A stretch of 64,000 nucleotides of DNA. It comes from Gemmatimonadota bacterium (GTDB taxonomy: Bacteria; JAAXHH01). This document shows positions 9,560-56,200 of the stretch, one piece after another. The stretch is taken from NCBI GenBank assembly GCA_026702745.1, contig JAPPBT010000005.1:15387-79386 (forward strand), read 5' to 3'. The position numbers and the translations under genes are program-made. A model generated the notes under the pieces. The model was not told the origin of the DNA and searched no databases. It saw nothing but the letters and a program-made list of their open reading frames with translations. Each line of letters begins with the position of its first letter. Positions within the stretch are counted from its first letter, which is position 1.

Positions 9560-10666
9560 ATGACGACAGGGCTTATCGGCAGGCGAATCAAGGCGTTGCG
9601 CGAGGAACGCGGGTTATCGCAGGAAAATGTAGCGAAAATCTTCGGGTTCAGTGATCGGCAGACGGTATCGGCTATCGAGACGGGCGCGAGACGCGTGACG
9701 GCGGAGGAACTGCTGCTCGCCGTCGAAAGACTGGGCGCACCGCTTGAGTACTTTACCGACCCGTTCCTGCTGGCGGGAGAAGGACGCTTCTCCTGGCGCC
9801 AGACCGGCGTCGAAATTGAACGGCTTGAGGCCTGTGAACAATGCGCCGGTCGCTGGATCGGCGCGTACCGCACGCTCGCGCCACAGGTCGGATACGAAAC
9901 GCCGCTGATGCGTCGGGCGTTCGGTCTTACCCGCCACGCGCGTTTCGAGGACGCCATGGCACTCGGCGAGCGGTTCGTCACCGAGTTGGATCTAGGTGAA
10001 GTCCCTGCCGTGCGCCTCATGGAAGTCATGGAACGCGAACTCGGTATCCTGGTGCTCATGATGGACGCCGAGCGCGGTATCTCCGGCGCGGCGTGCCGCT
10101 TGCCCGAACTCGACGCGGTGCTGATTGCGCGACATGAAGTCGTCGGACGCCGCCACTTCGATCTCGCCCATGAGTTGTTTCACCTCCTGACCTGGGATGC
10201 GATGCCACCCGAACACTCCGAGGATGCGTTGGAGACCGGAGGCAACCGCACCGAGCAACTCACCAACAACTTCGCGGCGGCGGTTCTGATGCCGGCCGCC
10301 ACCCTGGCAAGGTTCGGAAGCTGGTCTGGCCTCGCAGAAGATAAGTTGATCCGGAAACTACATGCGGTGGCGAACGAGTTGCGCGTGACGGCCTCAGCAC
10401 TGAGATGGCGGCTGGTCGCACTAGGCGAACTGAAACCCGCGGTCGCGCGGTCCGTACCTGATGCAGCATTGCGCAACAATAGCACAGAAATGGCCGAGAA
10501 CGGCCTGCCTGCCCTGTTCTCGAGACCGTTCATGGTGGTACTCAGCCTTGCGATCGAAAGGGGCTACATCTCGGTGCGAAGCATTGCCAGCTTGCTTGAC
10601 CTTGACGTCGAGGACCTCGTAGATCTCTTCGCTGCACATGACGTCCAGTGCGCAATTGAGCTGTGA
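9560..10666 (+). CDS. XRE-family HTH fused to an ImmA/IrrE (peptidase M78) metallopeptidase
   Basis: IKALREERGLSQENVAKIFG HTH; RRHFDLAHELFH (HExxH); ATG at 9560 after GGAGG. Confidence 0.9.
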   Translation: MTTGLIGRRIKALREERGLSQENVAKIFGFSDRQTVSAIETGARRVTAEELLLAVERLGAPLEYFTDPFLLAGEGRFSWRQTGVEIERLEACEQCAGRWIGAYRTLAPQVGYETPLMRRAFGLTRHARFEDAMALGERFVTELDLGEVPAVRLMEVMERELGILVLMMDAERGISGAACRLPELDAVLIARHEVVGRRHFDLAHELFHLLTWDAMPPEHSEDALETGGNRTEQLTNNFAAAVLMPAATLARFGSWSGLAEDKLIRKLHAVANELRVTASALRWRLVALGELKPAVARSVPDAALRNNSTEMAENGLPALFSRPFMVVLSLAIERGYISVRSIASLLDLDVEDLVDLFAAHDVQCAIEL

Positions 10667-10672
10667 GGTGTC

Positions 10673-11188
10673 ATGGCCCGGGATCGAGGTACCGTGTTGG
10701 TTGATACTAACGTCATACTGGAGTCCTATCGGTCAGGCTCGTGGCGAGCGTTGGCCGGTGGTTATCCGGTGGAATCCGTTGAAGAATGCGTCGATGAAAC
10801 GCAGCCGTGTTTTCAGCGTCGCAGGGCGGCGATTCGAGTTAGCGAAGGCGAATTGCGAGATTCCGTGAAAGCGGTCCATTCGGTCGGTAACCCCGAACAC
10901 GCAGGATTGGCCGTTCGAATCCACAATATCGCTTTGGATCGGGGAGAGGCTTCGCTTTGGGCGCATGCACTGAGCAGGACCGACGCATGGGTCTTGTGCG
11001 GACCGGACCGAGCCAGTCTTCGATGCGGTGTCCGGCTTGGGTTCCGACGGCGACTGGTGTCCCTCGAGGAACTCCTCAATGGTGTCGGTTACCGGTCAAG
11101 AATCAACCTTCGCCCGCAGTACACGAAGCGTTGGCATGAGAGCGTGCTTGGTGAAATACTTCTTACGGAAGAAGATCAAATCACATAA
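10673..11188 (+). CDS. PIN-like domain protein, partner of the XRE-ImmA gene
   Basis: VLVDTNVILE, LDRGEASL and CGPDRAS acidic PIN-type residues; 6 bp downstream of the ImmA gene. Confidence 0.75.
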   Translation: MARDRGTVLVDTNVILESYRSGSWRALAGGYPVESVEECVDETQPCFQRRRAAIRVSEGELRDSVKAVHSVGNPEHAGLAVRIHNIALDRGEASLWAHALSRTDAWVLCGPDRASLRCGVRLGFRRRLVSLEELLNGVGYRSRINLRPQYTKRWHESVLGEILLTEEDQIT

Positions 11189-11213
11189 GAACGCTTGGTA
11201 GGACGAAGTGACA

Positions 11214-12020
11214 TTACTCTTCGCTACGTACGGCAATCCCGCCTTGCGTCACACCGTCCTTCCGCCGGTCGACCGCACGCACGTGCTCCGTGTAGTCGTC
11301 GCTGCGAAAGTAGGCGCTGTCCAGGTTGTCCGTTTCGGACGTGACCGATGCGGTGACCCAGTGCGTCGCGTAGCCGCGCCGCCAGCGGTCCGATGTATTG
11401 CGGCGCGAGGAATGGAGCGTTTCCGAGTGGTGGAAGACCACACCGCCCTTGCGCACCGGCGCGGAGGCTTCCATCTCCCAGTCGATCAGGTTGTCCGGGG
11501 GCGCCAGGTTGTAGGGCTGGCCGGGGACCTCCACGTGGTCGATAATCCCCTTCCTGTACGAACCGGAGATGTACCTGAGACAGCCGTTTTCCTCGTCCAC
11601 GTCGTCGAGGGCGATCCATGCCGTGATCACGTGGCCGCCCGGCGTGCACCGGAAATAGAAGTTGTCCTGGTGGTAGGGCTTCTCCGACCCAAAACGTGGC
11701 GGTTTCATGAAGAGTTGGTCGCTCTTGAGCAGGGGTTCTTCACCAGTGAGCTGACGGAGGATGTCCCGAAGCCGGTCATCTATTGCGAAATCGCGGAACG
11801 TCGGGTGGCGCAAATACGGACTGTCGATCTTGCGCGGAGCGGTCTCGCCTGATTCGGAACGATCCAGCAGATAACCCTCCATGGATTCCTCTACGTCCAT
11901 GGCATCCGCCGTTTCCACGGCCAATCGGGCGACTTCGTCCGCTTCATCGGGAGAATAGACGCCCTCGACCACAAGCCATCCACGCTCGTGGAATATCCGG
12001 ACCTGTTCTTCGCTGATCAT
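11214..12020 (-). CDS. PhyH family dioxygenase
   Basis: Start reassigned to MISEEQVRIFHERGWL; YHQD and TLHSS triad. Confidence 0.9.
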   Translation of the reverse strand: MISEEQVRIFHERGWLVVEGVYSPDEADEVARLAVETADAMDVEESMEGYLLDRSESGETAPRKIDSPYLRHPTFRDFAIDDRLRDILRQLTGEEPLLKSDQLFMKPPRFGSEKPYHQDNFYFRCTPGGHVITAWIALDDVDEENGCLRYISGSYRKGIIDHVEVPGQPYNLAPPDNLIDWEMEASAPVRKGGVVFHHSETLHSSRRNTSDRWRRGYATHWVTASVTSETDNLDSAYFRSDDYTEHVRAVDRRKDGVTQGGIAVRSEE

Positions 12021-46286: not shown

Positions 46287-47417
46287 TTATGTAAACTTGC
46301 GGGTGCTGGCGATGCCCAGGATGCGCGCGGCGGTACCGCCCATGATCGCGGCCAGGTCCGCCTCGCTCAAGAAATCCGCGTACTTCTCGATCCAGTCCCG
46401 GGACTGGCGGTAGGTGCAGAACCGGTTCTGGAAGGGCATGTCCGTGCCCCACAGTAACCGGTCCGCTCCAATGCGGCCCGCCATCTCCTCCAGCGCCGGC
46501 CAGGCCTCGCGGTAGGGATAATCGAATAGGTCGCCGATGCGCACGGGGAAGCAGACTTCCAGGCTGAGGTTGGGGTTATCGAACGGTCTCCACAGGCCAT
46601 CCGGCAACACGAGACGGTCTCCTTCGATAAACATGCGCCAGGGGAAACCGTGGGTGATGCTGCAGACCGTATCCGGGTAGCGGTCCATCCAGTCCATGAG
46701 CACGCCGAGCTCGCCTAAGTATCCCTGCGTGAGGTCGGCATGGTAGCCGAGGACGGGGCCGGCGCCCAGGGTGAAAAAAACAGGGACGTTCATCGCGGCC
46801 ACGGCGTCCCAGAACGGACGGTAGGCGCCGCCGCTCCACGGCTGCTCGCTTCCGCGGTAGGCCAGCGAGGCATTGAACTTGACGGCGTGCAGCCCGTGTT
46901 CCCGCACGGCCCGTTCGATCTCTTCGATTACCCGGTCCGGTTCCGCGGCGATGCGCCATTCGTCCACGGGCGCCATGGAATACAGGCGGCCGGGAAAGGC
47001 GGCGACGCATTCGGCCTGGAACGCGCTGTCGCGGCCCAGCATGGGATTGGTATGGAGCAGGGCGGCGTCCACGCCCGCGTAGTCCAACTCGGCGATCAGG
47101 TCGCAGGGCGTGTATTCGAGATTGCGCAGGTGGGGCGGGTAGAACTGCTTGGTGTAGTCTTCTCCGTCGATCGTCCACACCACGCGGCCGTGAGTTCGAT
47201 CGACGCGGAAATCCACGTCGGGGAGCGTGGACCAGTCTCCGGGGGCCTCAGGCGCGATCGCCTCAGACGAGGCGGGCGCCCGGTCCCGGACCCGCCAGGC
47301 CGGCTGGTGATGGACCGCGTGCTCGGCCTGCATCCATCTCAGGTGGTCCCGGGCGTCGGCGTACCCGGCCTTCGCGTCACCCGGCGGAAAGCAGTACGCG
47401 TGGGAATCGATGATCAT
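46287..47417 (-). CDS. Amidohydrolase family protein
   Basis: IIDSHAY, ITHGFP, RLLWGTDMP. Confidence 0.85.
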   Translation of the reverse strand: MIIDSHAYCFPPGDAKAGYADARDHLRWMQAEHAVHHQPAWRVRDRAPASSEAIAPEAPGDWSTLPDVDFRVDRTHGRVVWTIDGEDYTKQFYPPHLRNLEYTPCDLIAELDYAGVDAALLHTNPMLGRDSAFQAECVAAFPGRLYSMAPVDEWRIAAEPDRVIEEIERAVREHGLHAVKFNASLAYRGSEQPWSGGAYRPFWDAVAAMNVPVFFTLGAGPVLGYHADLTQGYLGELGVLMDWMDRYPDTVCSITHGFPWRMFIEGDRLVLPDGLWRPFDNPNLSLEVCFPVRIGDLFDYPYREAWPALEEMAGRIGADRLLWGTDMPFQNRFCTYRQSRDWIEKYADFLSEADLAAIMGGTAARILGIASTRKFT

Positions 47418-47435
47418 GGATCGGGAAACGGTTCC

Positions 47436-48617
47436 CTAGCTTTCGAAGGTCCGTATAGTGCGAGTTACCTGCCCGTTGCTCTCCCAGTAAGTCTTCTTGC
47501 CGGCCAGGTACGGGTCGTCCGGCGCCGGCTGCATCGTACCGGCCGTCGTTATGCCCCGCGACGTGATCGTATGCTCGCCGGGGGACGGGCGGTCCCAGTC
47601 CAGCCGCCAGAACTTCCAGGCGTACTCGGCGTCCTCGCCCTCGATGATCTCCGCCGTCTGCCACGGACCGTCGTCGATGCACACCTGCACCTCCCTGAGC
47701 GGTTCGCCCCAGACCGCGCCGTAGATCCGGTGCAGGGGACCGACCCGGGTGACCCGCGCCGTGACGGAGTTGATGCGGCCCTTGCCCACGGACTCCTGGC
47801 GCCACACGGTCTCTCCGTTGTGGGTCTCCTCGCGGATCGTGACGTAATCCCGCGAAATGAACCGCCCCATGTACCGCGTGGTGCGTACTTCGATGCGCTT
47901 CAGCCACTTCACCTGGGTAATCCCGTACCAACCGGGTACGATGAGGCGCAGGGGATAGCCGTGCTTCGGCGGCAGCGTCTGGCCGTTCACCTCGTAACAC
48001 AGCAGGATGTCCGGGTCCATGGCCTGCGCCATGGTGAGGGAACGGGCGAAGTTCTGCTTCATGGTCAGCGGTTCGCTCCGGCGGGGGGTGATGACCTCCT
48101 CCCCCTCGTCGTGCCCGAAGAAAACCACCTCCATGCCGTTGTCCCACATGCCCGCCCGCTCCAGGATCGGCGCCAGCGGCGTGCCGGTCCACCGGGCGTT
48201 GAACACGCCGCCGCGGAAGACGGGAACGCCCCGATTGCCCGAGCACTCGAGGGTGAAGTCCAGGTCTTTGCGCGGCATGGATTTGATCTCGTCCAGGCTC
48301 AGGTTGAGCCTCTGTCTCACCGCACCCGTGATTTCGAGACTGTAGGTATCTCCGTCGACAGTCGGCTCGGGATAGTGGCTGGCCGAAAAAAACTGGTCCA
48401 CGGGCGTAATCCATGACTCCAGGCCGTTCCAGTCCAGCAGCACGAAATCGGGGCTTCGCGGCGGCCCGAATTCGTCGATCCAGTTTACGGGGGTTTCGTC
48501 CCTTGCCAGCTGGTCCAACTGGGCCAGCACGTGGGACGGCAACAGCGTCATGCCGGCGGTCGCGATCCCTCCCTTGATCAGCACGTCTCTGCGGGACAGG
48601 TTAGATTTCCCGGCCAT
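47436..48617 (-). CDS. Sulfite oxidase family molybdopterin oxidoreductase with a Tat signal
   Basis: SRRDVL twin-arginine motif; LECSGNR (Mo-ligand Cys), HGYPLRLIVPGWYG, VKWL. Confidence 0.9.
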   Translation of the reverse strand: MAGKSNLSRRDVLIKGGIATAGMTLLPSHVLAQLDQLARDETPVNWIDEFGPPRSPDFVLLDWNGLESWITPVDQFFSASHYPEPTVDGDTYSLEITGAVRQRLNLSLDEIKSMPRKDLDFTLECSGNRGVPVFRGGVFNARWTGTPLAPILERAGMWDNGMEVVFFGHDEGEEVITPRRSEPLTMKQNFARSLTMAQAMDPDILLCYEVNGQTLPPKHGYPLRLIVPGWYGITQVKWLKRIEVRTTRYMGRFISRDYVTIREETHNGETVWRQESVGKGRINSVTARVTRVGPLHRIYGAVWGEPLREVQVCIDDGPWQTAEIIEGEDAEYAWKFWRLDWDRPSPGEHTITSRGITTAGTMQPAPDDPYLAGKKTYWESNGQVTRTIRTFES

Positions 48618-48851
48618 ATGCGTATCCTCCCGGCTCGCTCGGCTCGCTCGGTTCAGTTACTTAGATTCGGTCTCTTCCGATAAACTGATATGGGGGTTGT
48701 TGTGATCGGTTCTATGATACATTGGGTGGGCGGAACAGATCAAGGGCTATGTTCAGATCAAGGGCAATGTTGACAGGCCCTTCCTTACCCGGTAAAATCG
48801 ATTGTTCATCTCACACACCCGGCACTTTGACCCTCCAGGAGCTTTTGATCT

Positions 48852-50006
48852 ATGAACCGACTGCTCGCCGAAGATTACCTCGTTTTGGCTACTTCGCCCG
48901 ATCCGGAGAACGTGTACGCCGGTTCGCCCTCGATCGCCCGGATGGACTCCGGACGCCTGCTGGCCAGTTACGAGTGGTTTCGTCCGTCGCCGCTCAAGGA
49001 AGCCGTGCCGGACCAGACCGAGGTGCTGATCAGCGACGACGACGGCGCCACGTGGAGCCTGGCGGCCCGCCAGGATTTCATCTGGGCGACCATCTGGACC
49101 CACGAAGACGACGCCTACCTCATCGGCAACCGGCGGAAGAGCCGGGATATTGTCATCGGCCGATCCCGCGACGGTGGCGCCAACTGGGAGGGACCCGTCA
49201 CCCTATTCGAGGGCAGGCACCACTGCGCGCCCACGCCGGTATTGATCCACAACGGCTTCGCCTACCGTGCCTTCGAGACCTGCGACGCACCCAGCCGCTT
49301 CGACTGGAAGTCCCTGGTGGTCGCGGGCAACCTTTCACGCGATCTGCTGAATCAGGCGGCCTGGCGGATGTCGAATCACGTCCGGTTCCCGGGCATCCCT
49401 GACGTGCTTTCGCAACGCAGGTACCCGGAGAGCGCGACCCACAAAGTTCCGGCCGACAGTTTCCTGGAAGGCAACATCGTACGGGTGGACGGCGAGATCC
49501 GGATGATCATGCGCACGATCGTAGACGGCCACACGACGTCGAGCCTGGCTTCCATCGGCCGGGTCGAGGACGATGGCCAGACCCTGGACTACCGGTTCGT
49601 CCAGTTCCACCCCATGCCGGGCGCCCAGTGCAAGTTCCAGATCGTCCACGACGAGGAAGGCGGCCTGTACTGGACCACCGTGACCTTGTCCACCAACCCG
49701 TGGCAGGACCGGGAGCCCCTCCGACGCATGGGCTTCAGCGGTCCGCCGGGCAACGAGCGGCGCATCCTCATGCTCATGTACAGCGTGGACGCGCTGAACT
49801 GGTTCCAGGCCGGCTGCGTGGCCATGAGCAGGAGCATGATGGAGTCCTTCAGCTACGCCTCGCAGGTCATCTCCGGAGACGATCTCCTGGTCGTCGCCCG
49901 CACCGCCCGGGGCGGCAAGAACCAGCACGACACCAACCTGATCACCCTCCACCGGGTAAAGGACTTCCGCGATCTGGCCCTGGATCTGCGGCCGGTTGAT
50001 TTGTAA
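48852..50006 (+). CDS. BNR/Asp-box beta-propeller (sialidase-like) protein
   Basis: Asp-boxes SDDDGATW and SRDGGANW; YSVDALNW; FSYAS. Confidence 0.7.
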   Translation: MNRLLAEDYLVLATSPDPENVYAGSPSIARMDSGRLLASYEWFRPSPLKEAVPDQTEVLISDDDGATWSLAARQDFIWATIWTHEDDAYLIGNRRKSRDIVIGRSRDGGANWEGPVTLFEGRHHCAPTPVLIHNGFAYRAFETCDAPSRFDWKSLVVAGNLSRDLLNQAAWRMSNHVRFPGIPDVLSQRRYPESATHKVPADSFLEGNIVRVDGEIRMIMRTIVDGHTTSSLASIGRVEDDGQTLDYRFVQFHPMPGAQCKFQIVHDEEGGLYWTTVTLSTNPWQDREPLRRMGFSGPPGNERRILMLMYSVDALNWFQAGCVAMSRSMMESFSYASQVISGDDLLVVARTARGGKNQHDTNLITLHRVKDFRDLALDLRPVDL

Positions 50007-50065
50007 TGTTGATAACGTAAATTACTGTTAAATAGGTTTGCTACTACTGGCATGTAATTCCACTA

Positions 50066-50704
50066 TTGTGTAATGAAAAATACACTGGAGGTGTTCCAAT
50101 CAACCAGATTCGAAACGAAGTTGTACGTGATGCATTCAACACTGACCGTGATCTTCCTTATCAACTTCGTCTGATGGATTTCGAGTCAGCAATGCAGGAC
50201 GTTTACGATTTCTTTCACGATGTCAATTCCCACCTAGTAGCACGTGGACTGGAACGTCTTGACGATATGTTGCGACCAGCCATCATGTCCGGAGTCCTGT
50301 CTGACATGCTAACGGCAAGTCTTGCCAAACACTCACGCGTACTTACGGAGAACAACTATTTCAATGGGCATCCAGACCTGGTAGTTCAGGGAGTTTATCC
50401 TGGAAACTCGGTAAAGGCTGGAGATCAGGGGGTGGAGATAAAAACCACAAGGAAAAAAGGTGGCGCAGTCGATACACACGGGGCAAGAAATCAGTGGATG
50501 TGTGTATTTGTCTACAAGGTGGACAACAAAACTGAACCAGCTTCAGCAAGACGGCCAATGGTTTTCAAGGAGGTCTACTTATCTCATGTGACCTTGGAAG
50601 ACTTTCGACGGAATCCTCGTAGTGAACTAGGTACACGAACTGCAACGCTCGATCGATATGGCGTGGCGAGATTCCGCGAGAACTGGGTATACAAAGACTT
50701 GTAA
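50066..50704 (+). CDS. Putative type II restriction endonuclease, PD-(D/E)xK fold (start uncertain)
   Basis: NGHPDL...GVEIKTT catalytic-type motif; AT-rich; convergent with a DNA methyltransferase gene. Confidence 0.65.
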   Translation: MCNEKYTGGVPINQIRNEVVRDAFNTDRDLPYQLRLMDFESAMQDVYDFFHDVNSHLVARGLERLDDMLRPAIMSGVLSDMLTASLAKHSRVLTENNYFNGHPDLVVQGVYPGNSVKAGDQGVEIKTTRKKGGAVDTHGARNQWMCVFVYKVDNKTEPASARRPMVFKEVYLSHVTLEDFRRNPRSELGTRTATLDRYGVARFRENWVYKDL

Positions 50705-50728
50705 ATCCTTGTTATTTTGCGTGCACAA

Positions 50729-51859
50729 TCATAGTTCAGAAAGCGATTGGACTGCTTTTTTTGCCATATTGAAATACAGCGAGTCCTTCTCAATTCCAAC
50801 TGACTCATATCCCACTGCTTCCGCTGCAGCTAGCGTAGAACCGGCTCCTGCGAAAGTGTCAACTACTATACCCTGCCCAAGAGGAAGCACGCCTCTTACC
50901 AACATACGCATGAATGTTTGTGGCTTTAAGCTTGGATGTGGCGCGATAGCCCTTTCATTCTTCCTAGTCGGAGAAGATCGGATCACATCTCCAAAGGGTT
51001 TAAAGCTGTCCGGTCGACGAAAACCTCCAGTTCGCCATTTACGCAGATTATCCTGAACCCTTCCTTCGATAGGCCTACGAAATAGCAACCAGGGCTCCCA
51101 CATGGATCTTGGGAGTACACTGACCCCTTCGAATTCATCGTGCGCCGCCTTAGGCCGGTCGCCACCTCGCATTGTCATCACCAACCGTACAATTTCACCC
51201 CTCCTTTCAAGACCCGCGTCCGCAATGGCGCCTGAAACGATATGGGAAAGAAGAGGATTAGAAGCAACAACAACATTAGCGCCCGGTACCAGCTTGGGTA
51301 ACAGTAGCCGGGTCCAAATAAAGAAAAACTCGCGGAGATACAGCTTCTGTCCATCAGTTAGAGTAGTAAATCGGGGTAGTGGCGACCGGACGTTTCCGTC
51401 AAATGAAGGAGGTATTCTCCAGACTCCTCCCTTCCTGCTTCTGAGCTTCGACTGTTCTTTCCTCGAGTATTCCTGCAGACCGTAGGGTGGATCTGTGACT
51501 ATAGCATGTATTGAGCTATCTTCCCGAGCATCCAGCCAGTCTAAACAGTCACCGTGAATTAACGTGGCATTTCCAATTCTGTAAGGTGTCTCCAACTCAG
51601 TATTGCTAAGTATCGTTTGTTGCAAACTGCTGTCATAATCGTCTTTGAGTCGGTAAATTCCTCTTCTTTCCCTTACAAACATTGATGGAGTATTAAGGCG
51701 CAGATAGGATCTTATAGAAGACTCTGGCATGTGTCCTTCGACCTTCGCGACTCTTTCAGCAACTTGCTTCGCCGACAAAGCATCCGACGAAAGCCTCATT
51801 ACTCGTATTATGGCGTCCCTTACTTGCCCTGGAGCATATCGTTTATGATCATTTGCCAT
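50729..51859 (-). CDS. Beta-class N4-C/N6-A DNA methyltransferase with an N-terminal winged-helix extension
   Basis: Motif IV TDPPYG precedes HPSLKP and motif I VDTFAGAGST; the N-terminal ~70 aa (LSAKQVAERV...SSIRSYL...RERRGIYRL) are wHTH-like. Confidence 0.9.
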   Translation of the reverse strand: MANDHKRYAPGQVRDAIIRVMRLSSDALSAKQVAERVAKVEGHMPESSIRSYLRLNTPSMFVRERRGIYRLKDDYDSSLQQTILSNTELETPYRIGNATLIHGDCLDWLDAREDSSIHAIVTDPPYGLQEYSRKEQSKLRSRKGGVWRIPPSFDGNVRSPLPRFTTLTDGQKLYLREFFFIWTRLLLPKLVPGANVVVASNPLLSHIVSGAIADAGLERRGEIVRLVMTMRGGDRPKAAHDEFEGVSVLPRSMWEPWLLFRRPIEGRVQDNLRKWRTGGFRRPDSFKPFGDVIRSSPTRKNERAIAPHPSLKPQTFMRMLVRGVLPLGQGIVVDTFAGAGSTLAAAEAVGYESVGIEKDSLYFNMAKKAVQSLSEL

Positions 51860-51865
51860 AGTAGA

Positions 51866-51894
51866 ATTATAGACGTCGGGACGTCGAAAGTCAA
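51866..51894 (-). promoter_or_regulatory. MTase promoter TTGACT-17-TATAAT with two GACGTC palindromes in the spacer; predicted leaderless mRNA
   Basis: -35 at 51889-51894, -10 at 51866-51871, GACGTC at 51872-51877 and 51880-51885; the ATG is 6 nt after the -10. Confidence 0.75.
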
Positions 51895-51984
51895 CGGTTT
51901 AACCGCAAGAAGACTTAACTTTTTGACTGGAGAAATGACATACGGACAGATTAGGGATTTCCTCGAATGAGGCGATAAACTGAC

Positions 51985-52038
51985 TTGACATTTGCAGGAC
52001 GATGCCTTATATATGACCATAGACATGACTATAGTCAT
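51985..52038 (+). promoter_or_regulatory. TA promoter (TTGACA-17-TATATA) followed by tandem palindromic operators
   Basis: Perfect palindrome ATGACTATAGTCAT at 52025-52038 and imperfect ATGACCATAGACAT at 52013-52026. Confidence 0.75.
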
Positions 52039-52059
52039 TTTATACCAAACGAGGACCGC

Positions 52060-52290
52060 ATGCCGACGATTTCGAAAAGCAAGCTCAAAGCCAACATGCT
52101 CCAAGTTTTCAGGGAGATCGAGGAATCGGGCGAAGAACTGATCGTGACACACAACCGGCGTCCCGTGCTGCGCATTCGGCCCATTGGAACAAAGCAACCG
52201 GTTGACCGGGTATTCGAGAAGCTGCGTGGGAAAGTCGTCTACCGCGAGGACATCAACACGCCCACCACCGACGAATGGGATGAAGCGTAA
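52060..52290 (+). CDS. Phd/YefM family antitoxin
   Basis: ISKSKLKANMLQVFREIEESGEELIVTHNRRPV; ATG at 52060 after GAGG. Confidence 0.88.
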   Translation: MPTISKSKLKANMLQVFREIEESGEELIVTHNRRPVLRIRPIGTKQPVDRVFEKLRGKVVYREDINTPTTDEWDEA

Positions 52291-52670
52291 TGGTCGTACT
52301 GGATACGTCCTCACTGATATTCTGGACGCTCGACCCCGGCCGCCTGTCCGAGACCGCCGAAGAGACCATCGCACAGGCCGACCGCGTAGGCGTCAGTTCG
52401 ATATCGATCTGGGAGATCGGCATCAAAGTAGAACGGGGCAGGCTTGTACTGCCGCTTTCCGGCGCGGAATACCTGGAAAACCTGGAGCAAACCAGTCGGG
52501 TGGAAATATTGCCCGTGGATCTGAGTACCTGGATCAGGAACCTGCAACTGGATTGGAATCACCAGGATCCTGTCGACCGGACGATCGTCGCCACGGCTTC
52601 TCTACACAACTGCCCGCTTGTGACTTCGGACAACGTGCTCCGCAGTTTCTACGAGAAGGCTGTCTGGTAA
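52290..52670 (+). CDS. vapC: Type II TA toxin, PIN-domain VapC family
   Basis: VVLDTSSLIFW, SISIWEI, HQDPVDRTIVATA, LVTSD. Confidence 0.92.
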   Translation: MVVLDTSSLIFWTLDPGRLSETAEETIAQADRVGVSSISIWEIGIKVERGRLVLPLSGAEYLENLEQTSRVEILPVDLSTWIRNLQLDWNHQDPVDRTIVATASLHNCPLVTSDNVLRSFYEKAVW

Positions 52671-52700
52671 GGACCGCCCACCTGGCACCGCAGACACTCC

Positions 52701-53225
52701 TCACACCGGTGCCGGCGCCACGTGTTCCAGCCCGAACTCTTCCCGCAGGCGGTCCATTTCCACTTTCAGTACATCAGGATCGGACGTGTCGGCGGACATG
52801 CGCTCCAGCAGCTGATCGGACGCCTTGAAGAAGCGGTCAAGCCCCGCGGGCGTGCAGATCAGCATAACGTGCGCCGGATCGTCCCCTGTGTTCCAGAACG
52901 AATGGGGTTTCCATCCCGGCACCGTAACCATCTGGCCGGCCTCGAGCACGAAGGCGCTTTCGTTAAGGAATTGGAAGGTAAGCATGCCTTTGACAACCAG
53001 GAACATCTCGATGAAGGCGTGCCGGGTGAATACGGGCGGCGGGCTGTGGGGCGGTTCGACGGCCTCGATGACCGTGACGCGATCCTCCGTGGCGGAACCC
53101 GGGGTCATGACCCGTACGTTCTGGCCCATGAGCGTCCTGAGCCAGGGGCCTCCGAGGTCTCCGGGGCCTCCAAGGCCGCCAGGACCTCCAGGACCTCCAG
53201 GGCCTCCGTTGCTGTCGCCTTTCAT
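52701..53225 (-). CDS. Cupin domain protein
   Basis: FTRHAFIEMF...VPGWKPHSFWN; N-terminal GGP repeats; start reassigned to 53225. Confidence 0.8.
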   Translation of the reverse strand: MKGDSNGGPGGPGGPGGLGGPGDLGGPWLRTLMGQNVRVMTPGSATEDRVTVIEAVEPPHSPPPVFTRHAFIEMFLVVKGMLTFQFLNESAFVLEAGQMVTVPGWKPHSFWNTGDDPAHVMLICTPAGLDRFFKASDQLLERMSADTSDPDVLKVEMDRLREEFGLEHVAPAPV

Positions 53226-53260
53226 GGTTTCGCTCCAACAGTCTGACAACAGGCCCGCGC

Positions 53261-56200
53261 TCAAATCGCTCGCTCTCCCGCGTCTCTGGCGGGTTCCGCG
53301 ACCACTTCACCCGTCACTGCCGCGATCATCTCCCGGCCTTCGTCCGCGTAGACCTTCTTGACCTCCTGGTCCACGGTGCGCCATACCAGGAATTGCTTGC
53401 GCAGCACATTCAGGAAACGCCGGTTGAGCCGCTGCCATGAATCCACGTCGCCGCTCAGGCGGTAGATGTGCACCCACACCGCGTACAGGTCGTGTTCTTC
53501 CTCGGCGGGGGCCGCGTGGAGGGACACGCGTTGGCTGACCCCCGCGTCGTAGGGTGCCAGCCAGGTCTTCATGCTGATTTCGTAAGTGGACGCTTCCGGA
53601 ACAACATCGGACGCCCGCCCCTCGCCCGGAACGGCCGTGGCCGCCCCCCCGACTGCCGAAGCGAGTCCATTCTTCCCGGTCAGGACCACCTCGTCCGTCA
53701 AGAAATTCCCCAGCGTGCTTTCGCCGTGGGATTCGAAGAATCGCGTCAGGTAGGCGTAGAGGCCAAGCGTCTCCGTGCGGCTGATGGTGAAGGGGAACTC
53801 GAAACGCCAGTCGTCGCCCTCGGGCTCGGGGAAGGACCACTGCCGGTTGACGTCCGGCACGGCCATCTGGGAGGCCTTTCGTGCAGGATAGATCGTCGAC
53901 AGCATGACCACCGCCATGACCATGAACGTGGAGGCCACGGCGGAAAGGGACGAGTAGTTCAGGTTCAGCCCCGCGAGCAACTGGTACTCCGTGATCCCCC
54001 GGGCCAGGGTCTGGCCGATCAGGTAGCCGGACATGCCGCCGATGACGGCATACATAGCCGCCTCCGCCATGAATAGCGCGCCGATGTGGGCCGGTGCCAG
54101 GCCCACGGCGCTGTAAACCCCGATCTCGCTGAAGCGTTCGTAGACGGCGTTCATCATGGTGTTCAGGATGATGAGGGCGGCCACGACCATGGGAATGAAC
54201 AGATCGCCGAGTCCGGACAGCGAACTCAACGCCATGGCGCTGTATACCGCGACCTCTCCGTCCACGGACGCCACCACGGGGATCCCGAGACGCTGCATAA
54301 AGCGTTCGATCCGGTTGGCGGCCGCTTCGTCCGTGGGAAACCGGACCGCGACGGAGCGGAGGGTCCCGCCGAGATCATTCACATAGGCCTGCGGGGTCAG
54401 CAGGATGTTCGCGGCCGGCAGGTGCTCGAACGCAGCCATATCCACGGGCTCTTCGTCGTAGTCCATCAGGGCGAGTTCGGTCAGCAGATCCTGGCCCGTC
54501 GCCGTGTAGTCCACGGGTGTGAGCGGCTCGCCGTCCAGGTCGGTAATCCTCTCGAGATCGGCCGCGTCGAACACGCCGATCACCTCGAAGGGCTGTCCGA
54601 ACACGAGGACTTCGGATCCCACGATTTCATCCCCGGTCAAACCGAGCAGCTCCGCCATTTCGGCCGGGACGATGCATACTTCGCGCTCCCCGGGCTCGAA
54701 CCACCGGCCCGATTTCAGCGTGCGGTCCAGGCCGCTCACCTCCCCTTCTTCCGGCAGCAGGCCGAGGATGGCCGAGGCATAGGTGGAATGGTTCGTACCG
54801 TCCGGTCCCTCCCGGTCCATCCTGATGAAGGTCGTCTCGCCGGGGAACGTGCCGGAGTACCACGACCGGGATACGATGGTGATGCCCCGGTCTTCGGCCT
54901 CCGACGAACCGAATTCGGAATCCACGTACTGAAAGGTCTGTTTCTGGAGCGGTCCCCAGTTGGGGTTGCGGACGAGGAAGCCCGTGTAGGTGGGCTCCGT
55001 GTCCCGGCTCAGCGTCTGCAACCTGAGGAAGGTCTGCACGGAGGTGAAGGAAAGCACGGTGAACACCAGGAGCACCAGGGTGACGCAAGTCAGCAGGGTC
55101 CGGGCCTTGCGCTTCCGCATGTTGCCGATGCCCAGGGAGAAGGCCGTGGCCAGGGCGCTCGAGCGCCGCACGTCGGTGGACTGCACGGTACGGTTGTCCT
55201 GCCGGACCTCCCGCATGGTCTGGCTGAATCGTTGGGAAATGATCCAGATGACGACTGCGGCGAGAACGAAGGTCATGAAGGCGAGGAGCACGATGTCGGG
55301 CGCTGTGGTGATCTGGAAGGCCGGGTGGGTGAACCGCAGCAAACCGTATGCAGCCAGGAAGATGGCGACGGTAGTGGCGATCCGCTTGTACACGTTGGCG
55401 AATCCGAAGACCAACCGCTCCAGGGCGTATGCGAACGGGATAACGAGCACCATGTAGAACAGTACGCCCTTCACGACGTCGTTGGCCGTCCCGGTCGCGT
55501 CCGGATAGGCGCGGGACTCGTATCCCCACGCGGCCCGGGCGTGCTTGATGAACCGGTCCCACTGCAGGGCCTGCCGGGCCGCTTCGGCCAGGTCCAGCAG
55601 GCGGCCCGCCTCCCGGTGGAAGTCGTCCAGCCGGGTGTTGCTCACGCCGACGGACTTGAGCGCGCCGATCCGCGCTTCGTCCAGGTGCCACATGTCTTTC
55701 GCCACCTGGTAGGAGGTCAGGGGGATGGCGTCGATCCCCGCCTTGAACCCGATTCCCTCCGGGTTGTTCTCGTCCGCGTTGGTCAGGATGAGGCGGCGGC
55801 CGAACAGGCCGGTGGACATGGTGACCTTGAACCGGCTTTCCGGCGGCATGAAGAGGACGGCCGTGTCCTCCTCGTACGAAAAACCCGTGGTCCACCCGCC
55901 CTCCTGGAAGGTCATGCCCCATTCGAGGGGCGGATTGCCCGACTCGTCGAGCACCACGGCCTCGTTCAGCCGGGTCAGGAAGCGCGGATCCACCAGGTCG
56001 TAGATGTTGGTCGCCTCGGACCGGAAGACCACCGTGGGTTTTTCCTTGTCCACCCAGTCCATCTTGATCTCGAGGGGGTAGGCGCCTTCCCCGTAGGGAC
56101 CGCGGTCCGGCGCGTAGATGATTTCCCCCGTTTCGGGGTCCATCACGTAACCTTCCGTGGGGTAGGTGCGCCCTGCCTCCAGTTCGGTACTTTCGGCTAC

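Follow-up and report, generated by a model that had tools for sequence, protein, structure and literature searches.

A restriction–modification (R–M) pair of about 1.8 kb, taken here to be a mobile module of Type II and composed of a methyltransferase gene (M) and an endonuclease gene (R), was analyzed in a 64,000-nt stretch of DNA from a Gemmatimonadota bacterium (assembly GCA_026702745.1, contig JAPPBT010000005.1, positions 15,387–79,386 of the forward strand), referred to below as the window; positions are numbered from its first letter. The analysis points to a palindromic operator, GACGTC-YR-GACGTC (Y, pyrimidine; R, purine), predicted to sit between the −35 and −10 hexamers of the M promoter. 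Its two boxes appear, from sequence comparison, to belong with the N-terminal winged helix-turn-helix (wHTH) of M and not with the catalytic parts alone, since they accompany the wHTH whether it is fused to the methyltransferase or split from it, also where the endonuclease has been swapped, and are absent where the wHTH is missing. We consider it likely that the wHTH binds the GACGTC pair and that M thereby represses its own leaderless promoter.

The methyltransferase promoter

On the minus strand, positions 51894..51857 read TTGACT / TTC GACGTC CC GACGTC / TATAAT / TCTACT / ATG. The −35 hexamer (51889..51894) and the −10 hexamer (51866..51871) are separated by a 17-nt spacer and together match the sigma-70-type consensus at 11 of 12 positions, which made this the top-scoring promoter in a consensus scan of 49900–52100. 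The predicted operator, GACGTC-CC-GACGTC (51872..51885), lies within the spacer, with its boxes at 51872–51877 and 51880–51885. The ATG of M (51857..51859) follows 6 nt past the −10 hexamer with no Shine–Dalgarno sequence, and the mRNA is predicted to be leaderless. Single GACGTC sites are unremarkable in the window, with 30 observed and 32.5 expected.

The full M open reading frame (ORF) runs on the minus strand from 51859 to 50729 and encodes 376 aa. R, on the plus strand (50099..50704), is convergent with it, the stop codons being separated by a gap of 24 nt (50705..50728). The terminator scan was empty both in this gap and across all 2.2 kb of 49900–52100, and neither a controller (C) gene nor a C-box was found among the ORFs and sequence of the same interval. 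A preliminary description of this DNA had reported the TTGACT-17-TATAAT promoter with two GACGTC sites in its spacer, the leaderless start 6 nt after the −10 hexamer, an N-terminal wHTH on the methyltransferase, a small convergent PD-(D/E)xK gene and no separate C gene. All of these were recovered here, the wHTH as three helices and a β-hairpin in a structural model and the putative endonuclease by its invariant D104, E124 and K126.

The methyltransferase and its winged helix

M matches the N6/N4 DNA methylase family PF01555 (E 1e-13). Its catalytic part, residues ~92–376 (50729..51586, minus strand), carries DPPY at residues 123–126 (51482–51493) ahead of FAGAGS at residues 336–341 near the C-terminus, the motif order of the β class, and both motifs are invariant in 32 homologues. 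Sequence and fold matches in the PDB relate M to CcrM, TTHA0409, M.BceJIV, M.MboIIA, M.RsrI and M.PvuII, and neither the Pfam nor the PDB sequence searches returned a C5-methyltransferase match. M is thus a β-class N6-adenine/N4-cytosine amino-methyltransferase.

An AlphaFold2 model of M, built on the 32 homologues, predicts the wHTH at residues 10–71 (51647..51832, minus strand), with helices at 10–22, 30–41 and 46–55 and strands at 61–64 and 68–71, at a predicted local distance difference test score of ~80–88. The recognition helix, SSIRSYLRLNT in the window, is nearly invariant across homologues (SS[VI]RSYLRLNT) and is followed by the wing RGIYRL. A nearly invariant recognition helix is what an invariant operator would be matched by, and we count this in favor of the wHTH binding the boxes.

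Five of ten wHTH-bearing members gave matches to the HARE-HTH family PF05066, all below the gathering score (best E 2.6e-4), and a wHTH profile found no homologue among PDB sequences. Run against 1.84 billion representative proteins, the profile retrieved 632 clusters at 50% identity; in all clusters inspected, the wHTH either stands alone or lies N-terminal to the same methyltransferase family as M.

Conservation and distribution of the promoter layout

A scan of representative genomes returned 559 loci, the best 80 of which (L003–L082) were compared; among them, L003–L006 are the syntenic relatives of the window. For M as for R, more than 8000 clusters of homologues were retrieved, at roughly 60–90% identity, and R adjoins M in all of the best 80 loci. 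Carriers among these 80 belong to Gemmatimonadota, Dehalococcoidia and other Chloroflexota, Gamma-, Beta- and Deltaproteobacteria, Latescibacterota, Planctomycetota, Verrucomicrobiota, Kiritimatiellia, Nitrospirota, Elusimicrobiota, Acidobacteriota and others. Homologues also occur on 4.9-kb ColE1-type plasmids of Klebsiella, Citrobacter and Raoultella, and on plasmids of Gordonia, Rhizobium, Ralstonia, Iamia, Mycobacterium and Microvirga.

The layout TTGACw-N3/4-GACGTC-YR-GACGTC-TAnnnT-6/7 nt-ATG was found in about 72 of 78 wHTH-bearing loci, which come from Gemmatimonadota, Chloroflexota, Proteobacteria, Planctomycetota, Verrucomicrobiota, Nitrospirota, Actinomycetota and enterobacterial ColE1 plasmids, and the DNA further upstream of the M promoters is unrelated among the loci. 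The comparison of homologous promoters, which the preliminary description had proposed as a check on its site pair, showed the pair to be near-invariant: each of the 12 positions in the boxes is 97–100% conserved across 74 non-redundant promoters. The junction between the boxes begins with a pyrimidine in 97% of these promoters and forms a YR step (TG, CA or TA) in ~84%. TTGAC is kept 3–4 nt 5′ of the first box and TAnnnT directly 3′ of the second, and positions farther from the boxes have no dominant base. The distance from operator to start codon is 12–13 nt in 43 of 77 loci and 11–17 nt in ~60 of 77; the predicted leaderless layout is thus itself conserved, the exception being the enterobacterial plasmids, which carry a 44-nt leader.

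Variant operators are few: AACGTC in three cases, GACGTT in one and AACGTG-TA-AACGTC in one. In three loci, operator variants coincided with substitution of the wing residue R70, but this residue is also substituted in 34 of 72 loci with a perfect operator, and the covariation was discarded. Three actinobacterial loci (L092–L094) have a third, partial box that continues the 8-bp phase; we liken this to cooperative repressor arrays and count it for an operator function of the boxes.

The operator pattern was also matched 39 times in viral contigs, none of the matches lying 5′ of an M homologue; they fell in microvirus-like contigs, phage arrays of 8-bp repeats and coding sequence, and were set aside. 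Several phage contigs (L103, L106, L112, L119 and L124) carry long iteron-like arrays of 8-bp units, e.g., TAGACGTC, TAGATGGC and CAGATGGC, which share the period and part of the core of the operator and show no link to any nearby methylase.

Association of the box pair with the winged helix

In Actinobacteria, the wHTH is encoded by a separate gene of ~72 aa, the stop codon of which overlaps the start of a methylase gene of ~300 aa. Here, GACGTC-NN-GACGTC is located 5′ of the stand-alone wHTH gene, as seen in Iamia, Mycobacterium avium and nine further loci. The mycobacterial partner ORFs are 282–307 aa long and 36% identical to R of the window, the 307-aa ORF lying on an M. avium plasmid (L084 2920–3843). 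The box pair is likewise kept on the Microvirga plasmid pMVF16-3, where a wHTH–M fusion with a catalytic part 67% identical to that of the window is accompanied in tandem by an unrelated 356-aa ORF (L134 3436–4506; IGDID...AEVK). Neither the 307-aa nor the 356-aa partner had a Pfam, NCBIfam or PDB sequence match. In another actinobacterial locus (L092 5103–5324), the split wHTH and methylase are accompanied by an R reduced to its last ~74 codons (72% identical), a decay to an orphan methylase that still bears the operator.

Conversely, the box pair was found in none of six relatives with an M that lacks the wHTH (L033, L037, L076, L059, L071 and Acidiphilium plasmid pACMV5). Their identity to the window is 48–63% for the catalytic part of M and 34–74% for R; in the five genome loci, with R 66–74% and M ~53–63% identical, it is as high as in box-bearing loci, and the pair was found nowhere in the 8–20 kb covered at each of these five. 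In three Dehalococcoidia loci (L033, at 10554–11947, L037 and L076), M has lost both the wHTH and the operator, and its start overlaps the last 4 nt of a GNAT acetyltransferase gene, with R retained; there, M is apparently expressed from a host operon. In two of the six loci, M and R are in tandem, and pACMV5 carries a classical Xre-type C gene with a GACTCATAGTC C-box (GACT..AGTC). The pair thus accompanies the wHTH in all of the roughly 78 loci encoding this domain and is missing where the wHTH is, which lends comparative support to the alternative offered in the preliminary description, namely that the repeats of 8-bp period are wHTH operators.

The same pattern bears on two other explanations of the boxes. 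The first is a control of the CfrBI type with no protein reader, in which the boxes would be cognate sites whose methylation directly alters the use of the promoter by RNA polymerase and the wHTH would have another role, e.g., in target search. For CfrBI, control through methylation of the system's own site in the M promoter is established (bioRxiv 10.64898/2025.12.04.692298; PMC3874152). Here, however, the boxes lie in the spacer and not in the −35 and −10 hexamers read by sigma, and they vanish exactly when the wHTH is lost, so that an effect of this kind seems very improbable. The boxes also follow the wHTH where it is a separate gene, which argues in the same direction.

The second explanation is that a host factor binds the boxes, for example enterobacterial MetJ with S-adenosylmethionine (SAM). 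MetJ binds tandem 8-bp met boxes of the consensus AGACGTCT, and an operator with a TA centre is what we take to be exactly two such boxes in tandem. On an enterobacterial plasmid, the operator does read TGACGTCC-TGACGTCT. Against this, the operator is conserved in at least 10 phyla, whereas MetJ is, to our knowledge, confined to Gammaproteobacteria, and the operator co-occurs strictly with the wHTH. We therefore regard MetJ as a highly unlikely general reader of the boxes and its binding as at best an additional layer in enterobacterial hosts. The plasmid operator itself, from a ColE1-type plasmid of Klebsiella and Citrobacter (L001 871–884), is accompanied by a third GACGTC 16 bp upstream; host MetJ–SAM might also bind this M promoter, linking a SAM-consuming enzyme to the SAM level.

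Predicted autorepression

As the promoter is optimal even without an activator and the operator occupies its spacer, we infer repression rather than activation. In a naive cell, the promoter would be free and M would be made at once, as expected from a near-consensus, leaderless promoter. As M accumulates, its wHTH would occupy the operator and occlude RNA polymerase, and M would fall to a maintenance level. A delay of R by antisense transcription is proposed as well, given that R has no conserved promoter, that the 3′ ends of the two genes abut or overlap and that no terminator was found between them: early, strong transcription of M would run antisense through R and delay it, and later repression of the M promoter would release R.

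Autoregulation by an N-terminal HTH of the modification enzyme is the second recognized class of R–M control (PMC3874152), and in M.SsoII residues 1–71 regulate transcription and residues 72–379 methylate (PMC3978073). The convergent or antisense circuits of AhdI and EcoRI are comparable in spirit to the proposed delay of R (PMC2275141, PMC3141266).

Several points weigh against autorepression by the wHTH. The boxes are perfect 6-bp palindromes, although one wHTH usually recognizes a half-site that lacks symmetry; a simple dimer model leaves the palindromic form unexplained, and a Type IIP site would be expected to have it. That the wHTH is restricted to one methyltransferase family is equally compatible with a link to specificity and with a co-inherited module. 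The behavior of R70 in the wing is no covariation proof of contact with the operator, and the delay of R by convergent transcription is conjecture on our part. Finally, no RNA runs carrying the locus were found, the matches being to sponge and marine DNA metagenomes.

GACGTC as a possible recognition site

The palindromic form of the boxes raises the question of whether GACGTC is also the recognition site of the system, of the AatII/ZraI type with methylation to G-m6A-CGTC (m6A, N6-methyladenine), the boxes becoming methylated once M is active and the wHTH or the whole of M binding them in a methylation-dependent manner. The preliminary description had put a reading of this kind first, with GACGTC or ACGT as the candidate target and methylation as feedback, possibly read by the fused wHTH. 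Six positions conserved at 97–100% in a perfect palindrome are typical of Type IIP sites, and the wHTH and its operator stay with one methyltransferase family through three changes of endonuclease partner. The chemistry would be compatible, in that M.AatII methylates the adenine of GACGTC, having been an amino-methyltransferase of ambiguous N4-methylcytosine or m6A type before single-molecule real-time sequencing (PMC3287169). Winged helices can read m6A, and recognition of modified DNA has been proposed or demonstrated for HARE-HTH and other prokaryotic winged helices (PMC11037411); the wHTH gives weak HARE-HTH matches. The model of R is also weakly similar to the blunt-cutting EcoRV/NaeI branch, and ZraI likewise cuts GACGTC to blunt ends.

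The site statistics, measured on the flanking DNA of carriers, do not favor this idea. In 1.27 Mb of flanks of the 80 loci, GACGTC has an observed/expected ratio (O/E) of 0.84 and is among the least avoided palindromes; in the window and L003–L006, where the module is vertically inherited, 66 sites were observed against 67.8 expected (O/E 0.97). The most under-represented 6-bp palindromes in the flanks of L003–L082 are AAGCTT and CAGCTG, with an O/E of 0.44 each. As candidate targets, these were rejected: their deficit is spread thinly among carriers of many phyla, is not seen in the window and looks like a general property. The 'M.HindIII' label carried by one plasmid homologue, in the style of Prokka, merely reflects the nearest Swiss-Prot entry.

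Comparison of the loci tells against the idea as well, in that relatives without the wHTH but with close M and R carry no GACGTC pair in their promoters. Furthermore, operator variants alter the outer positions and never ACGT, a graded constraint that is more operator-like, and tandem 6-bp palindromes are known that serve purely as operators, as with RptR (PMC12255303). The met boxes of MetJ are another example. A specificity for any family member was not found in the literature searched, where GACGTC methylomes were limited to M.AatII, a haloarchaeal 5-methylcytosine enzyme and one metagenome mention. On balance, we regard it as rather unlikely that GACGTC is the system's own target with its methylation sensed at the promoter, and autorepression through the wHTH as the favored mechanism.

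The endonuclease and its start codon

R had no Pfam, NCBIfam or PDB sequence match. Its AlphaFold2 model is weakly closest to NaeI (probability 0.98) and EcoRV (probability 0.41), with a template modeling score of 0.37. D104 (50375–50377) and the E124-x-K126 pair (50435–50443; E124-I-K126 in the window) are invariant among its more than 8000 homologues of 60–86% identity and form a PD-(D/E)xK-type motif; the residue numbers count from the TTG at 50066.

The open frame of R reaches this TTG, but in the Gemmatimonadota-like clade the gene probably starts at the ATC at 50099, giving a protein of ~201 aa. In L003–L006, an in-frame stop lies 4–7 codons before the ATC, with no ATG, GTG or TTG in between, and in all five genomes, the window included, AAGGAG or GGAGG is found 7–8 nt before the ATC (GGAGG at 50087..50091 in the window, 7 nt upstream). 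Purifying selection acts on the 25 codons between the ATC and the first ATG: the codons for LPYQLR mostly vary among the five genomes, and all of the changes are synonymous. The residues N17, F24, N25, L30, P31, L34 and R35, invariant throughout the family, also fall between the ATC and the first ATG, and most other family members start with ATG-CCN-ATC. Such a very weak start would probably act as a second, translational brake on the toxic R.

Upstream of R, neither a conserved promoter nor GACGTC was detected in the homologous loci compared; the DNA there differs between loci and often continues directly from a host gene. At their 3′ ends, R and M overlap in the majority of 81 loci, with a median distance of −4 nt, the bulk of the values between −50 and +24 and the window at +24; eight gaps of 148–640 nt are possible artefacts of the coordinate walk. 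Two hot spots of GACGTC inside the R coding region were dismissed, being explained by conserved Asp-Val dipeptides.

Genomic setting

The R–M pair forms an islet of 42–51% guanine-plus-cytosine (GC) content inside DNA of 62–68% GC. Divergent from M, a toxin–antitoxin pair occupies 52060..52670 on the plus strand, with a Phd/YefM-like antitoxin gene (52060–52290; PF02604, sub-threshold) followed by a PIN/VapC toxin gene (52290–52670; PF01850). This pair plays no part in the R–M mechanism but keeps its place beside the R–M genes in related genomes. A perfect 14-bp palindrome, ATGACTATAGTCAT, at 52025–52038, just 5′ of the antitoxin gene, is probably the toxin–antitoxin operator.

Both pairs are syntenic between the window (47000–55000) and L003–L006, at 76–85% nucleotide identity. 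The synteny of the module in five sponge-associated genomes indicates that it has been vertically inherited and is a long-standing resident of a Gemmatimonadota-like clade of sponge symbionts; window-like sequence also matches sponge and marine DNA metagenomes. The GC islet persists despite this long residence, with no amelioration. Flanking direct repeats, looked for as a signature of insertion, were at chance level only, and no near-identical copy of the module was present in the E. coli complete genomes searched.

Significance

The family is very large, spans at least 10 phyla and extends to ColE1-type plasmids of clinical Klebsiella and Citrobacter, yet its R is annotated as 'hypothetical'. 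Should autorepression by M be correct, the principle of the methylase as its own repressor would extend from C5-methyltransferases to amino-methyltransferases, in a new version that pairs a new DNA-binding fold with a leaderless promoter and a minimal control region of 40 bp. The occurrence of the same regulator in fused and separate form is a natural experiment on the origin of controller genes, and a 1.8-kb module with a sigma-70 consensus promoter makes the system tractable in E. coli K-12.

If the boxes were in addition cognate sites, the promoter would read the methylation mark of its own system. The M promoter would then sense whether the DNA of the cell is protected, with the preference of the wHTH for methylated or unmethylated sites setting the sign of the feedback. 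Such an epigenetic loop would lie in one of the most widespread R–M families and would provide the first tractable methyl-DNA reader of the HARE type.

Comparison with known systems

No description of the module was found in the literature searched, and it shares single features with several known systems. CfrBI resembles it in having short palindromic sites in the M promoter of a Type II system without a C gene, where feedback by M is conceivable. However, CfrBI relies on a single site, located where its divergent promoters share a region, and needs no DNA-binding domain, whereas the module has two sites in the spacer, which track the wHTH.

The C-protein systems PvuII, AhdI and Esp1396I also use a small DNA-binding regulator to time M versus R, and AhdI has convergent transcription units, as does the module (PMC2275141). 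A distant relative of the module, on Acidiphilium pACMV5, itself uses a classical Xre-type C gene, and the split actinobacterial wHTH is formally a small controller gene. C proteins, however, are activators or repressors with an Xre-type HTH that are cotranscribed with R, while the regulator of the module is a wHTH fused to or cotranscribed with M, with no C-box. RptR is a further small repressor associated with R–M systems, acting through TAGCTA palindromes in 9-bp direct repeats over the promoter (−10), of which at least two boxes are needed (PMC12255303). It differs from the module in being an all-helical dimer with another palindrome and period, associated with Type I systems and never fused to a methylase.

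In sequence, the module operator has the same GACGTC core, 8-bp period and pyrimidine–purine junction as MetJ operators. MetJ is a ribbon-helix-helix protein that uses SAM as co-repressor for methionine genes, and no such protein is encoded at the module. The recognition sequence of AatII/ZraI equals the box, and M.AatII is, like M, an amino-methyltransferase, producing G-m6A-CGTC (PMC3287169); on the other side, host DNA of carriers shows no avoidance of GACGTC.

The closest functional parallel is the SsoII/Ecl18kI/EcoRII/MspI/ScrFI type, in which an N-terminal DNA-binding region of ~70 residues is likewise fused to the methyltransferase. There, M binds a palindromic operator overlapping its own promoter and represses itself with no C protein (PMC3874152), and the same binding and repression are predicted for the module. 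The enzymes of this type are, however, C5-cytosine methyltransferases, whereas M is a β-class DPPY amino-methyltransferase, and they have no detectable similarity to its HARE-like winged helix. The SsoII operator is one 15-bp inverted repeat, as opposed to two 6-bp palindromes of 8-bp period within the spacer. SsoII-type genes are divergent and share a regulatory region, whereas those of the module are convergent with overlapping 3′ ends, and therefore activation of R by promoter competition cannot work as it does in the SsoII type. The predicted leaderless mRNA and the occurrence of the wHTH as a separate gene are further differences. In its predicted mode of control, the module is thus functionally like the SsoII, EcoRII, MspI and ScrFI systems but stands outside that group.

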